Of a stretch of 64,000 bases of DNA, positions 1-64,000 are shown piece by piece. The translations under genes and the position numbers were made by a program. The first letter of the stretch is position 1. Each line of letters starts with the position of its first letter. The notes under the pieces are model-generated. The model was given only the letters and a program-made list of their open reading frames with translations, was not told where the DNA came from and did not search any database. Origin of the DNA: a phage; NCBI GenBank assembly GCA_014816185.1, contig GCA_014816185.1_4095.1; one strand, given 5' to 3'.

Positions 1-31
1 AATTATTTCATCAAGACGAGAGGATGAATAC

Positions 32-547
32 ATGACACGCATTAACTTAGTACACGTTAAAGAACTTGCTGACCAACATCTGATGGCTGAATATCGTGAA
101 CTTCCACGTGTGTTTGGTGCTGTACAAAAACACGTTCAAGCACGTAAGCGTGTACGTGATTTCAAAATTAACAGTACTTACCTGTTGGGTTCAGGTCATG
201 TAACATTCTTCTACAACAAGTTATTGTACTTACAGAAGCGTCATATTGATATTGTTAACGAATGTTTGCGTCGTGGTATGAAGATTCAAAACACTGAAGT
301 AAACGACATTAGCGGCTTCCCTGCTGAGTTTTGTAATGACTACGTACCATCGGAGTCAGAGATTAAAATGTCTCGTGACCGTTTGATTGAGAAGCTCCAG
401 ATGAAGCCTACGTGGTATAAGTTTACTGATGTTGAATGTCCACAGTACGTTAAAGATATGCAGAACGTAAGTAGTAAGAACGAATCTAGTACTGATATGT
501 TCGACGAAATTGAAGAACAAATCAAAGATGAAATGAATAATTATTAA
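32..547 (+). CDS. denV: pyrimidine-dimer DNA glycosylase / AP lyase (T4 endonuclease V family)
   Basis: 171-aa ORF starting [29 protein letters not shown]...RDFKI; matches T4 DenV N-terminus and fold-length from memory; C-terminal acidic extension. Confidence 0.88.
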
Positions 548-585
548 AGGAAAGGATTGACTTCGGTCACACAAAGGAACATAAC

Positions 586-780
586 ATGTTATTAGTATAT
601 TCAAAGCGTTTCTGGATTTCTTTCATTGTACTTTCGCTAATCGGCTTCGGTGTGAGTATAATCTTGTCGTGGGATGAATTGGGTACATGGTATTATGAAG
701 TTCCGTGGTACATGAAGATAGCTCCTTGTTACGCGGCATTGTTCGTGTCCTTCCTTATTGTTGTCTTCAGTGAGGATTAG
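586..780 (+). CDS. small hydrophobic membrane protein
   Basis: 64-aa ORF with two hydrophobic stretches; ATG at 586. Confidence 0.45.
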   Translation: MLLVYSKRFWISFIVLSLIGFGVSIILSWDELGTWYYEVPWYMKIAPCYAALFVSFLIVVFSED

Positions 781-831
781 TTGATGTAGTATGTGCTACA
801 CCAAAGTATTTGGATATTTGAGATATAAACA

Positions 832-860
832 TTGACACCTGTTCTATCTTTCTGTATTAT
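832..860 (+). promoter_or_regulatory. sigma70-like promoter TTGACA-17-TATTAT
   Basis: TTGACA at 832-837, TATTAT at 855-860, GAGG RBS at 875-878, ATG at 887. Confidence 0.4.
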
Positions 861-886
861 GTACATCACCAAATGAGGAATACAAC

Positions 887-1246
887 ATGGCATCTTTAAG
901 TGAAATCGCAGAATACAACCCACTAACAATCTCAACAATTCAACGTACAAAAACTTTTTATTTCCGTCCTGCTGATGGATGGAAACGTGGAATGAATGGT
1001 GACTATCGAGTACTGGAAGATTCACTAATCGAGCGTATCAACTCTGAACTACAGAACTATGAAGGTGTTAAAGTTGTGCGTTCAACTTCTCGTTATTTTG
1101 AGTACTACATTGAGTCTTCAACTGTAAATGAAAACTCATCATTATCGGTGGACAACACTGATATTCTTCGTAATGCAGTTGGTATGTTATGCAACATTGC
1201 AGAAGAAATGGGATTAACTATTAGTACTATGAGTGAATTAGAATAA
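887..1246 (+). CDS. hypothetical protein
   Basis: 119-aa ORF with own promoter and RBS. Confidence 0.5.
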   Translation: MASLSEIAEYNPLTISTIQRTKTFYFRPADGWKRGMNGDYRVLEDSLIERINSELQNYEGVKVVRSTSRYFEYYIESSTVNENSSLSVDNTDILRNAVGMLCNIAEEMGLTISTMSELE

Positions 1247-1251
1247 CATAA

Positions 1252-1285
1252 AGGGTTGACTTCGGTCAGCCCTTTTTGCTATAAT
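1252..1285 (+). promoter_or_regulatory. hairpin with UUCG loop overlapping TTGACT-18-TATAAT promoter
   Basis: AGGGTTGAC-TTCG-GTCAGCCCT followed by TTTTT; TTGACT 1256-1261 and TATAAT 1280-1285. Confidence 0.5.
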
Positions 1286-1311
1286 TATTTCATCAACACA
1301 AGAGGTAACAA

Positions 1312-1548
1312 ATGAAACTATCTTTTATACGATTAGCTGAATTCTTCGGTACTGATGTAATTACTTTACAACAAATTGCAGATAATACTTCATTAAGTAC
1401 ACAAGAAGTACTTGACTTAGATGTAATTCAGTGCGATAATACTTCCATCGATTTCAAAGAAGGTCTTGTCGAAAAAGATAAGATTAAAGCTAAGATTAAT
1501 GGTGCTGGACGGGTTCAGTACTGGAAAGGAGTATTAAGTAATGTTTGA
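1312..1548 (+). CDS. hypothetical protein
   Basis: 78-aa ORF; stop overlaps start of next gene. Confidence 0.45.
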   Translation: MKLSFIRLAEFFGTDVITLQQIADNTSLSTQEVLDLDVIQCDNTSIDFKEGLVEKDKIKAKINGAGRVQYWKGVLSNV

Positions 1549-61646: not shown

Positions 61647-61656
61647 GGAAAGTACA

Positions 61657-62208
61657 ATGAGTTCAATGAGTTTATTAGATACATTAGAAAAAGACAGAAG
61701 TGCCATTAAGCGTTTAAAAGAGCAAGTACAAAAGATTGTATACAACGTTGATAAGTTTGAAGTCCCAGGAAGATTTGGTGATATTTCCCATACGGAGATC
61801 AAATCCCTTAAGTCAGATTTGTTGATTAAAAATAAAAATGGGTTGATTTTAGTTTTGAGTTCAGATATGATGGGGGCAACACATAGTTATAATGCCGTAT
61901 CGGTGCGTTCCGAGTGTGAAGGTATATATCTATCACAGGGTTTCAATAGCGAGACACAGGTTTGTTTTTGTGATGCAGTACATGACCCTATGAAGTTCAC
62001 GAGAAGTGAAGCCCAAGCGTTATTAGAGCTATCAGACGAGAGTTTGTTTCAGTACAGTACAATGTATGACAATGATAAGCTTCGTTGTATGTACGCTGTA
62101 AAGCATTATACACAGGAGTTCTCTGGATTTGCATACCTTTTAGTTAGAACCAATACCAGATATATTGATATGTTAGAAGATTACATCGATAAAGTTGTTA
62201 ATGTATGA
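61657..62208 (+). CDS. FQxSL-family protein
   Basis: start MSSMSLLD after AGGA; SDESLFQYSTMYDND. Confidence 0.5.
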   Translation: MSSMSLLDTLEKDRSAIKRLKEQVQKIVYNVDKFEVPGRFGDISHTEIKSLKSDLLIKNKNGLILVLSSDMMGATHSYNAVSVRSECEGIYLSQGFNSETQVCFCDAVHDPMKFTRSEAQALLELSDESLFQYSTMYDNDKLRCMYAVKHYTQEFSGFAYLLVRTNTRYIDMLEDYIDKVVNV

Positions 62209-62230
62209 TGTATTATTATGTGATGGGATA

Positions 62231-62398
62231 ATGCTGATGAAAGAGTTATTTGAAGATCAGTTCAATACATATGTGGATAATATTCTTTATTCCAGCCGTG
62301 CTAGTCAACGAGGAAATCGTGCTTACAATATAGATTACCTATTAGTGGTGCTGAGTTCACAGTACACCTACGCTGTACAGAGGACATATTATGAATAA
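62231..62398 (+). CDS. hypothetical small protein
   Basis: start uncertain (track 62195). Confidence 0.3.
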   Translation: MLMKELFEDQFNTYVDNILYSSRASQRGNRAYNIDYLLVVLSSQYTYAVQRTYYE

Positions 62399-62594
62399 TT
62401 TTAGAGATGTTGCTAAGGAGAAGTTCAAGTGCAGTTTAGATTTTGGGTTAAATGATTTTCTTACATGCACAATGTACAGGAATGATGATTATGAGCAATC
62501 CGTAATTTCGTTGCACAGATATTTCGAAATAATTTACGCAAGATATCTTAGAAGGTTAGAGGGAATAGGGGATTGGAATTATGATTACGTTTGA
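62391..62594 (+). CDS. hypothetical small protein
   Basis: 67-aa ORF. Confidence 0.4.
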   Translation: MNNFRDVAKEKFKCSLDFGLNDFLTCTMYRNDDYEQSVISLHRYFEIIYARYLRRLEGIGDWNYDYV

Positions 62595-62817
62595 AGAACC
62601 AGAAACAATGAGTCCATATACGATGAAAGGTTTTGAATTCATGATGGATTCGATTTTGAAGAATTCGTGTTTAGTACACAATCCTGAGCGTGCAACAGTG
62701 AGGGAATATCAGGACAATGCATTACAGCGTGTAATGAATATGTACAGGAATACGAGTCGCAAGCTTTGTGCGTTGAAAAGGATTGAAGAAATCAAGGTTT
62801 CTAGGCTGAATAAATAG
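62581..62817 (+). CDS. hypothetical small protein
   Basis: 78-aa ORF. Confidence 0.4.
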   Translation: MITFEEPETMSPYTMKGFEFMMDSILKNSCLVHNPERATVREYQDNALQRVMNMYRNTSRKLCALKRIEEIKVSRLNK

Positions 62818-63015
62818 AGACGTTTCATTTTGACAGGCCGCAGGGGGGGGTCAAAAAAATTTCCGCTGAAAAACATGCTAAGGTATATGTTTAATATAAA
62901 GTTTTATATTGTGTTTTTCAGAGTACAGTTCATGTTTCCTTAAACAAAAAATACCCCGCCGCCGAACGTGCTCCTTATATTGGAGTTTACCTTATTAATT
63001 ATAGTAGAGATTAAG

Positions 63016-63393
63016 ATGGAAATAAAATATAATGAATTTTGTGCAAGGACATGGATGTACACTGGTGAGTTAGTTACGCACTCTAACTTATACAAGGGTG
63101 ATTTAAACTACGCTAGGGACAAGATTTTAAAGTACTGGAATGCTGACTTTTATTTGATGGATTTTAGTACTGGGTTTAGGGGTAAAGCAACCGAGATGTT
63201 GGACTATACAGTACTTGATGATGCTGCACTGTTTCAGGCGGCATTAGTATTTGATAAGAAGTACATCTGTACATTAGAAGAGATGATTGAATTACAGCGT
63301 AGAATTAAATGTATTCACAGGGAATGTATAGATATCTGGTGCAGTACTGGTGAAGATGATTTTTGTAATCATTTCAATCTAGGGGAAGTGTGA
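63016..63393 (+). CDS. FQxSL-family protein
   Basis: start MEIKYNEF; DDAALFQAALVFDKK. Confidence 0.5.
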   Translation: MEIKYNEFCARTWMYTGELVTHSNLYKGDLNYARDKILKYWNADFYLMDFSTGFRGKATEMLDYTVLDDAALFQAALVFDKKYICTLEEMIELQRRIKCIHRECIDIWCSTGEDDFCNHFNLGEV

Positions 63394-63554
63394 TGGAATT
63401 TGATTTTTTAATATCAGTACATTCTTTTAAGCACAGTTATCAGTACTTTTGTAATTTAAACAAAGGTGATTTGATTATGGATACAGATACAGAGGCTGTA
63501 TACAGTTCTAATATTCTGTACAAATTCAGTACTAATCTGAAGGAGATTTTATGA
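63393..63554 (+). CDS. small protein (53 aa), copy 1
   Basis: MEFDFLISVHSFKHSYQYFCNLNKGD; near-identical 5' part at 63922. Confidence 0.35.
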   Translation: MEFDFLISVHSFKHSYQYFCNLNKGDLIMDTDTEAVYSSNILYKFSTNLKEIL

Positions 63555-63922
63555 AAAAAGAAATTAGAATTCAATTCGGTATGAGGAAAAAAGAGGTCAT
63601 CTGTACACTGAATCATGCGGTCGTGGAAAGCCTTGGTGGTGCATTACAAAAATTCTCCCATTTTGTTCTTGTACTATATGAAAATGGGTCTTTTAAAATC
63701 TTCACATATGATGATTCAAAAAATTACCGTAATGATTTTGTAAATCTGACAGTACTGTCAGAAGAGGAATTCTTTCAGGAAAGTACTGTCTGGAATTTAC
63801 CAGGAGCACCAATTGAATACGTCCGTGCTACACAGGCAGAAATGATCAAAGTAATGCAGAACTATCCAGAAGATTATATGACTAAGTTTCCTGAATCTAT
63901 TTATGTAGAGGTTGAGTACTGA
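63551..63922 (+). CDS. FQxSL-family protein
   Basis: SEEEFFQESTVWNLPGAP. Confidence 0.5.
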   Translation: MKKEIRIQFGMRKKEVICTLNHAVVESLGGALQKFSHFVLVLYENGSFKIFTYDDSKNYRNDFVNLTVLSEEEFFQESTVWNLPGAPIEYVRATQAEMIKVMQNYPEDYMTKFPESIYVEVEY

Positions 63923-64000
63923 TGGAATTTGATTTTTTAATATCAGTACATACTTTCAAGCACAGTTATCAGTACTTTTGTAATTTAAACAAAGGTGATT
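63922..64000 (+). CDS. small protein, copy 2 (truncated by window end)
   Basis: MEFDFLISVHTFKHSYQYFCNLNKGD; partial. Confidence 0.3.
   Translation, partial: MEFDFLISVHTFKHSYQYFCNLNKGD

Follow-up and report, generated by a model that had tools for sequence, protein, structure and literature searches.

AGTACT is a selected, clade-conserved DNA word of Rak2-like jumbo phages

Introduction

Short DNA words that are densely kept by selection and read by a protein machine, such as Chi, the DNA uptake sequences and the FtsK-orienting KOPS, can mark DNA as 'self'. In this study we describe the palindromic hexamer AGTACT in a 64-kb stretch of phage DNA (contig GCA_014816185.1_4095.1, hereafter the window) and in related Rak2-like jumbo phages, where it is a selected word that is present throughout the genome and conserved in the clade. 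The closest known phenomenon is HIP1 (GCGATCGC), a highly iterated palindrome of cyanobacteria. Its sites are conserved above background, which has been taken to reflect selection rather than biased repair (PMC5861425). Its function is still debated, and orphan methyltransferases may be connected with it (PMC4390886).

Two other described systems share features with the DNA analysed here. In T4-type phages, the PeSL cassettes consist of near-consensus sigma70 early promoters and a stem-loop that flank small variable genes in the hyperplastic regions of the genome (PMC2839356, PMC4122927). The SlmA-binding sequence of Escherichia coli (GTGAGTACTCAC) is palindromic over 12 bp, and the dimeric protein of the TetR family that binds it needs G1 and T2 of the half-site GTRAGY (PMC3020112).

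Results and Discussion

Frequency of AGTACT in the window and in PBECO4

By megablast the window falls in the Asteriusvirus group, the PBECO4/121Q-like jumbo phages of E. coli and Salmonella (PBECO4, 121Q, G17, SP27, CMSTMSU and others), to which it has 94-98% identity in a mosaic arrangement. The complete genome of PBECO4 (348 kb), fetched in full, was used as the close reference, and pieces of 20-40 kb were sampled from RaK2, GAP32 and XbC2. The expected count of AGTACT in the window is from dinucleotide-preserving shuffles.

A sequence-only reading of the window had called AGTACT strikingly frequent, and this was borne out: there are 282 copies against 20.6±5.0 expected (shuffle maximum 35), and 63 copies of CAGTACTG against 0.79±0.86, making AGTACT the top over-represented hexamer of the window (z = 56, 13-fold). 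The complete PBECO4 genome has 891 copies against 118 expected (7.6-fold), and essentially all of its 5-kb bins are enriched, except for a block devoid of ACT that is described below. Its peak, at 135-160 kb, is the homologue of the window at 20-48 kb. The window itself is uneven: the density is ~7 per kb in that stretch and ~3 per kb over the first 20 kb, falls almost to background between 48 and 53.5 kb, and is zero from 55.4 to 63.06 kb. Copies are spaced a little more regularly than chance would give (coefficient of variation 0.85-0.89), and the largest gaps, of 1.6-2.1 kb, are below the Poisson expectation. In a single 50-kb sample of E. coli K-12 we counted three copies against 11.6 expected, so that the phage density is ~40 times that of this one host sample.

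The fate of many other palindromes in these genomes is the reverse. The window lacks 25 of the 64 palindromic hexamers altogether, and in PBECO4 there are 26 with no more than two copies each. Among tetramers, GCGC is missing from the 348 kb of PBECO4 (290 expected), and the restriction-type palindromes CCGG, GGCC and CGCG are at ~0.4 of expectation. Selection linked to host restriction, as had been suggested from the sequence, is not supported in its usual sense, since the genome purges restriction-type palindromes and yet AGTACT is enriched rather than avoided. We also considered whether the enrichment is a side-effect of avoiding other palindromes and rejected this, as the pentamers AGTAC and GTACT and the tetramer GTAC are themselves enriched and a Markov expectation merely restates that fact.

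Pressure on the DNA sequence of coding regions

Inside open reading frames (ORFs) lie 187 of the 282 window copies (3.5 per kb; ~18 expected from composition), distributed over the three frames as 83/44/60, with the remaining 95 outside (9.0 per kb). Synonymous-codon shuffles within each ORF, in which the protein and its codon usage are kept, gave 58±6 copies for the window against 189 observed, and 169±12 against 597 for the ORFs of PBECO4. In PBECO4 ORFs of at least 100 amino acids, Ser-Thr is spelled AGT-ACT in 309 of 594 cases (52%), where codon usage predicts 92 (15%), and the other two frames are similarly affected (xAG-TAC-Txx, 101 against 16 expected; xxA-GTA-CTx, 185 against 41). The Ser-Thr dipeptide is itself in excess in these ORFs (594 against 414). 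The share of Ser-Thr spelled AGT-ACT is alike, at 50-65%, in late structural, replication and early genes and in genes of unknown function. An amino-acid or codon artefact is rejected by the codon-pair test and the shuffles and, together with the even share among gene classes, these results place the pressure on the DNA sequence itself, genome-wide and uniformly.

These data also bear on the simplest alternative, that AGTACT is a by-product of AT-rich composition and the reuse of promoter and terminator cassettes. Some 50-60 window sites do occupy fixed positions in repeated cassettes of this kind. Against this explanation, 187 sites are inside ORFs, the flanks beyond ±4 bp are uninformative, the excess survives both dinucleotide and synonymous-codon shuffles, and just 8% of PBECO4 sites are promoter-associated, so that we consider it already refuted and its remaining probability negligible. 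The k-mer test that had been proposed for separating true enrichment from AT-richness and promoter reuse was thus passed decisively, and in all gene classes.

Conservation of AGTACT sites and their spread in the clade

AGTACT sites are 2-3 times better conserved than average hexamers. The window and PBECO4, at 95% identity, share 190 of 211 sites (90-93%) compared to 81% for all hexamers, and at the ~72% nucleotide identity of RaK2 and PBECO4 the sites are kept at 17 of 42 and 17 of 29 positions (40-59%) compared to 18-21%. The enrichment itself ranges from 5- to 17-fold across the sampled relatives. In RaK2 the surroundings of the large terminase gene have 50 copies against 6.9 expected and the early region has 212 against 13.5; the corresponding values for the sampled regions are 202 against 12.1 in GAP32, 156 against 10.3 in Xanthomonas phage XbC2 and 36 against 7.0 in a 366-kb metagenomic relative from IMG/VR. 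It was not seen in more distant relatives, in which the large terminase is just 43-45% identical. Sampled phages that infect Escherichia, Klebsiella, Cronobacter and Xanthomonas have thus retained the same hexamer.

Over-representation throughout the genome, in all frames beyond what codon and amino-acid usage predict, and conservation above background are three of the properties of a HIP-like word, and AGTACT has them. That AGTACT is a DNA word under selection, present throughout the genome and conserved in the clade, we regard as firmly established. It is kept by selection on the DNA itself, and a phage factor probably reads it.

A neutral process would be biased mutation or repair, similar to very-short-patch repair, that turns near-matches into AGTACT. 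A uniform genome-wide effect in every frame is what such a mutational drive predicts, and the re-creation of lost sites at the same positions could mimic conservation. However, the precursor words are not depleted: the one-mismatch neighbours of AGTACT have ratios of 1.0-3.3, with the exception of AGGACT/AGTCCT (~0.45). In addition, a 5.5-kb block of old, diverged paralogs lacks the enrichment, the spacing is more even than random, and the Ser-Thr excess noted above is present at the dipeptide level. We therefore judge biased repair to be highly improbable.

Two-fold symmetry of the motif and its flanks

In the window, C precedes AGTACT at 44% of sites and G follows it at 47%, and there is a weaker preference for T at -3/-4 that is mirrored by A at the matching downstream positions. 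The preferences at positions 1 and 6 are likewise mirror images, so that motif and flanks together are two-fold symmetric, with TTC-AGTACT-GAA as the extended consensus and TTCAGTACTGAA as the commonest 12-mer. No information is present in the window flanks beyond ±4 bp and, as only the near flanks are informative, the copies are not members of a long repeat. Pairs of sites recur at a spacing of 20-22 bp. Words such as Chi, the DNA uptake sequences and KOPS are asymmetric and have a strand bias; AGTACT, being symmetric, does not belong with them.

At -1, G is disfavoured in both PBECO4 and the window. The GTG flank is the most depleted of the 64 flank triplets, with three occurrences in the 1,782 half-sites of PBECO4 against 20.7 expected and one in the 564 half-sites of the window, which may reflect avoidance of true SlmA-binding sites or just the preference for C at -1. 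The possibility that the AGTACT copies are SlmA-binding sites was rejected, because SlmA needs G1 and T2, which this most depleted flank would supply, and because the Xanthomonas phage is enriched too.

AGTACT at promoters, terminators and in the ORF-free region

The sequence-only reading had tied AGTACT to regulatory elements, and the positions it named at -10 boxes, at -35 boxes and in the hairpins of the MLPF cassettes were all confirmed. Of the window sites, 24 are placed at -19..-14, 1-2 nt ahead of a [TC]ATAAT box, as AGTACTgTATAAT or AGTACTggCATAAT. Another 20-27, as AGTACTTGCAA, share bases with the upstream edge of a -35 box (AGTAC-TTGCAA, -39..-34), with a further 8-11 sites ~11 bp upstream of the latter. 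Several promoters have two copies 20 bp apart, or two helical turns, and the histogram of offsets from the -10 box has peaks at 7-8 and 27. The offsets are common to the window, PBECO4, RaK2 and GAP32, and both the 20-bp spacing and the architecture of the two-site promoter listed in Table 1 are also found in RaK2 and GAP32. Each intergenic cassette between the RCC1-repeat paralogs, whose proteins begin MLPF, has a terminator hairpin, GCCAGTA-cttga-TACTGGC, that contains AGTACT.

The regulatory copies are thus a real sub-class, but the tie as first proposed was overstated: fixed early-promoter positions account for ~20% of window sites and ~8% of those in PBECO4, and most window sites are in ORFs. 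Sites do lie at fixed positions relative to -10 and -35 boxes in repeated cassettes, and the enrichment is not confined to intergenic cassettes. Copies at promoters and terminators form a minority of the sites and did not give rise to the enrichment.

The highest local density is in the ORF-free region (Table 1), which had been credited with dozens of copies; their abundance is confirmed, although the number is closer to two dozen. This region has strong sigma70-like promoters, an iteron-like array and short repeats, had no matches in transfer RNA (tRNA) or Rfam scans, which were also empty for the window as a whole, and may serve as an origin of replication or a hub of regulation. An origin could not be placed here by GC skew, as the skew of PBECO4 tracks gene orientation.

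Among the early-type small genes, a G-rich stem-loop (...TATAATagtttacatcaaGGGGAGAA...TTCTCCCC...) comes after the repeated promoter cassettes at 27,400-47,000. Chi of E. coli, GCTGGTGG, is present in 14 copies in the window against ~0.4 expected and in 22 in PBECO4 against 1.9, and several of its copies are in intergenic cassettes, adjoining AGTACT sites.

Table 1. Features of the window, with observed and expected numbers of AGTACT where these apply.
Feature	Position	Strand	Remarks
Plus-strand genes	0-7 kb	+	Window layout
RCC1-repeat paralog array, proteins begin MLPF	7.5-20.5 kb	-	Window layout
Small genes with individual promoters	20.5-48 kb	+	Window layout; includes ORF-free 25.4-27.4 kb
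Tightly packed small ORFs	48-64 kb		Window layout
RCC1-repeat 'MLPF' paralog array	7500..20600	-	40 AGTACT, most inside genes
ORF-free region	25400..27400		Highest local density, 21 AGTACT vs 0.7; at least 10 are TCAGTACTGA-type decamers
TAAGTAATCA repeats	25,509-25,566; 25,749-25,772		In ORF-free region
Sigma70-type promoter	26048..26077	+	TTGACT-N16-TATAAT, CAGTACTG abutting the -10 box; inverted repeat I1
Iteron-like array, 8-bp periodic	26,439-26,600		CTGGATGG / CTAGACGG / CTAAACGG; in ORF-free region
Early-type small genes	27400..47950	+	Each with promoter and stem-loop cassette; 129 AGTACT vs 6.6
Two-site early promoter	30979..31013	+	AGTACT at -35 upstream edge (AGTAC-TTGCAA), second 20 bp downstream, just before TATAAT
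TraR/DksA-type zinc finger protein gene	38,366-38,623	+	85 amino acids; among early genes
RelE/YoeB/YafQ-fold protein gene	42,188-42,442		Conserved
Small paralogous ORFs, ~25	47950..53500	+	No enrichment: 3 AGTACT vs 1.8; GTAC 14 vs 16.5
ACT-free operon, ~17 co-directional genes	55419..63060	+	No ACT on sense strand over 7,643 bp
Chi GCTGGTGG	26,282; 33,244; 37,755; 39,216; 40,464; 42,810; 44,710; 46,287; 46,511	+	
Chi GCTGGTGG	10,015; 10,273; 10,528; 26,270; 33,182	-	

An operon without ACT and a block without enrichment

Two parts of the window, and no others, escape the AGTACT pressure. One is the ACT-free operon, in which the absence of ACT from the sense strand makes AGTACT impossible. 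At the window average of one ACT per 48 bp, ~160 would be expected (ln P about -153), and AGT is present at its normal frequency. The PBECO4 counterpart, at 116,682-124,300, is the sole gap of this kind for any trinucleotide in 348 kb. Blocks of the same type were found in the sampled pieces of Ecwhy_1 (7,839 bp, at 7,235-15,072), CMSTMSU (8,461 bp, at 6,653-15,112) and Turkey5 (4,402 bp, at 9,763-14,163), with 55, 45 and 27% identity, respectively, to the query block protein. The proteins of the block had no Pfam matches and belong only to PHROG families of unknown function. At 56.6-62.2 kb of the window and 100-116 kb of PBECO4 there are large families of paralogs of 170-200 amino acids, together occupying tens of kb, that share a C-terminal 'EE-x-(F/Y)FQ-x-S' motif and also have no Pfam family match.

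Within the block, AGTACA takes the place of AGTACT, with 41 copies in the window (~2.5 expected), 43 in Ecwhy_1, 47 in CMSTMSU and 24 in Turkey5. In the window block TGTACT is absent and Ser-Thr is spelled AGT-ACA. These AGTACA sites are moderately conserved (50-59% compared to 39% for all hexamers). The enrichment of AGTACA in DNA with no ACT therefore indicates that the pressure for the motif persists and gives way where the sense strand admits no ACT at all.

This behaviour bears on the possibility that the unit under selection is strand-specific, approximately 5'-(A)GTACT-3', and is recognised in single-stranded form by a central enzyme of replication, for example a T4-type primase. A palindrome would be the cheapest way of placing such a unit on both strands, and in the ACT-free operon it is only the bottom-strand unit (TGTACT, AGTACA on top) that survives, 16-fold enriched. 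Also in keeping with a replication enzyme are the uniform pressure in all gene classes, the even spacing with maximum gaps near 2 kb, which is the scale of Okazaki fragments, the clustering of sites in the iteron-bearing ORF-free region, and the conservation of the hexamer, whatever the host, in a clade that shares replication genes. However, known primases recognise trinucleotides, no genome is known to enrich the sites of its primase, and NGTACT with N other than A is just 1-2-fold enriched outside the block. On balance we regard a strand-specific unit as unlikely, if well worth keeping in mind.

The most natural reading of the ACT-free block itself is avoidance of ACU in messenger RNA (mRNA), and its transcripts may be an 'ACU-free' set that escapes an endoribonuclease specific for a trinucleotide. 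Avoidance of MazF (ACA) or ChpB (ACA/ACG/ACU) was considered as the cause and is a poor fit, as ACA is abundant in the block (220 copies). A further explanation of AGTACT is that AGUACU is an RNA motif of phage transcripts, for example a site of endoribonuclease cleavage or binding, and that it is connected with the operon that has no ACU. The absence of ACT from the sense strand of an entire operon shows that selection at the RNA level may operate here, and the window encodes a conserved RelE/YoeB/YafQ-fold protein (Table 1). Yet the strict two-fold symmetry of motif and flanks has no rationale in RNA, ACU already occurs once per 48 nt so that an extra AGUACU adds little, and the motif is equally frequent in promoters and in spacers that appear untranscribed. 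An RNA motif thus seems to us highly improbable as the basis of AGTACT.

It is conceivable, at the speculative end of what we would propose and with the probability decidedly against it, that Rak2-like jumbo phages have sequence codes at two levels that separate their own nucleic acids from those of the host. A conserved phage factor would read the dense word AGTACT and protect, organise or prime the phage DNA. The ACU-purged transcripts of the 7.6-kb Asteriusvirus operon would survive an ACU-specific endoribonuclease, for which the RelE/YoeB-fold protein of the phage and an abortive-infection toxin of the host, acting against the remaining mRNAs, are the candidates.

The second part is the array of ~25 small paralogous ORFs (Table 1), which has a matching 5.6-kb gap in PBECO4. 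These paralogs are in tandem, are 70-80 amino acids long and have an 'LGTNYQE' motif; sense-strand AGT is roughly half as frequent at 48-52 kb.

Candidate readers of the motif

We searched for a phage protein that could read AGTACT. Among the 296 PBECO4 ORFs at 96-235 kb, no helix-turn-helix-type or other sequence-specific DNA-binding domain was detected (Pfam, E<=1e-3), and the scan yielded no more than a sigma factor, a TraR/DksA zinc finger and a ParE-like toxin domain; for the ORFs at 0-96 kb and 235-348 kb the judgement is based on annotation alone. The neighbours of the toxin-like gene, considered as a possible antitoxin or DNA binder, had no family or PDB matches. The window has a TraR/DksA-type C4 zinc finger (PF01258) in an 85-residue protein (Table 1), which may bind in the secondary channel of RNA polymerase. 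In the literature we found no paper that mentions AGTACT in these phages and, likewise, no Asteriusvirus transcriptome.

Two methyltransferases carried by the clade are present in PBECO4, a conserved adenine enzyme of the Dam family (PF05869) and a C5-cytosine enzyme, and in PBECO4 and XbC2 the Dam-family gene has conserved synteny, adjoining a cytidylyltransferase gene. This leads to the proposal, raised in part by the sequence-only reading, that AGTACT is the target of a conserved phage methyltransferase and is an epigenetic mark, comparable to GATC with Dam, for protection, replication timing or promoter control. The DNA of RaK2 has been reported to be CpG-methylated and resistant to methylation-sensitive restriction enzymes (PMC3622015), HIP1, the closest analogue, is associated with two methylases (PMC4390886), and an enzyme whose specificity is conserved would account for finding one hexamer across hosts. 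Nevertheless, AGTACT has neither CpG nor GATC, CpG appears to be the target of the C5-cytosine methylase, and the characterised PF05869 enzymes are known as GATC-specific. A site density that is 8-13-fold higher is not accounted for by methylation alone, and the enrichment of AGTACA in the ACT-free block would need relaxed specificity. Methyltransferases that might recognise the word are present, and we consider a methylation target possible, if doubtful.

The reading we favour, tentatively and as the leading one of several, is a symmetric reader of duplex DNA that is encoded by the phage, conserved, and also active at early promoters. We favour it on three grounds: motif and flanks are two-fold symmetric, the promoter copies are helically phased, and the word is independent of the host. 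AGTACT, in its preferred form TTCAGTACTGAA, would then be a selectively maintained 'highly iterated palindrome' of the Rak2-like clade, and its reader on duplex DNA would be a symmetric (dimeric) protein with sequence specificity that is conserved and encoded by the phage. Its copies, at approximately one per 230-400 bp, would be a dense mark on phage DNA that is lacking in host DNA, and those at -19..-14 and -39..-34, two helical turns apart, could let the same protein occlude early promoters.

Several observations weigh against a symmetric phage-encoded reader. The main counterpoint is that the half-mutated AGTACA is as enriched in the ACT-free block as AGTACT is elsewhere, and is moderately conserved, which fits a strand-specific reader more naturally than a symmetric dimer; this surrogate keeps both the strand-specific and the methylation alternatives alive. 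The block at 47.95-53.5 kb has no enrichment and we have no explanation for it, most window sites (187 of 282) are intragenic and have no obvious regulatory role, and the cassettes may simply have inherited the fixed promoter positions from a common ancestor, or a compact promoter may leave just a few positions that sigma70 does not constrain. The frequency in the host is from one 50-kb sample of E. coli K-12. Lastly, the Pfam search of the 296 PBECO4 ORFs gave no candidate binder. The earlier suggestion of a protein-binding site is thus matched by the anatomy of the motif (an extended palindrome, TTCAGTACTGAA, and phased promoter pairs 20 bp apart), while the search for the binder was empty.

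Comparison with known systems

Restriction-site avoidance is extreme in the same genome, and yet AGTACT goes the opposite way. Phages are known for avoiding palindromes, whereas here one palindrome has been raised 8-13-fold by selection while ~25 others are purged. That the same word is kept in sampled relatives on different hosts points to an unrecognised sequence-reading component of jumbo-phage biology, be it a mark on the DNA, a protein of the nucleoid, a methylase or an enzyme of replication. As AGTACT is a ScaI site and a simple 12-mer can serve as bait, the component can be sought directly. The ACT-free operon, if it acts at the RNA level, would be a natural set of mRNAs immune to a trinucleotide-specific RNase.

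Chi, the DNA uptake sequences and KOPS differ from AGTACT in being asymmetric and orientation-biased, while AGTACT is palindromic and ~10 times denser. The SlmA-binding sequence shares the AGTACT core; however, the phage flank is TTC or ATC instead of GTG, and the enrichment is also present in a Xanthomonas phage. The window at 27-48 kb has the same promoter and stem-loop layout as the PeSL cassettes, which are thought to mediate modular shuffling, but the published PeSL consensus has neither AGTACT nor GTAC, and AGTACT is also spread through coding DNA genome-wide.

The resemblance to HIP1 is closest, as both are short palindromes that are over-represented many-fold (15-300-fold for HIP1) and are found within genes, in all frames, as well as between genes. 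AGTACT is a different and shorter word (a hexamer, or the octamer CAGTACTG) and is carried by a clade of viruses and not by a cellular phylum. Its genome otherwise purges palindromes, some of its copies are at fixed promoter positions, and no methylase has been shown to target it. AGTACT is, then, a viral counterpart to the long-unsolved problem of HIP1.

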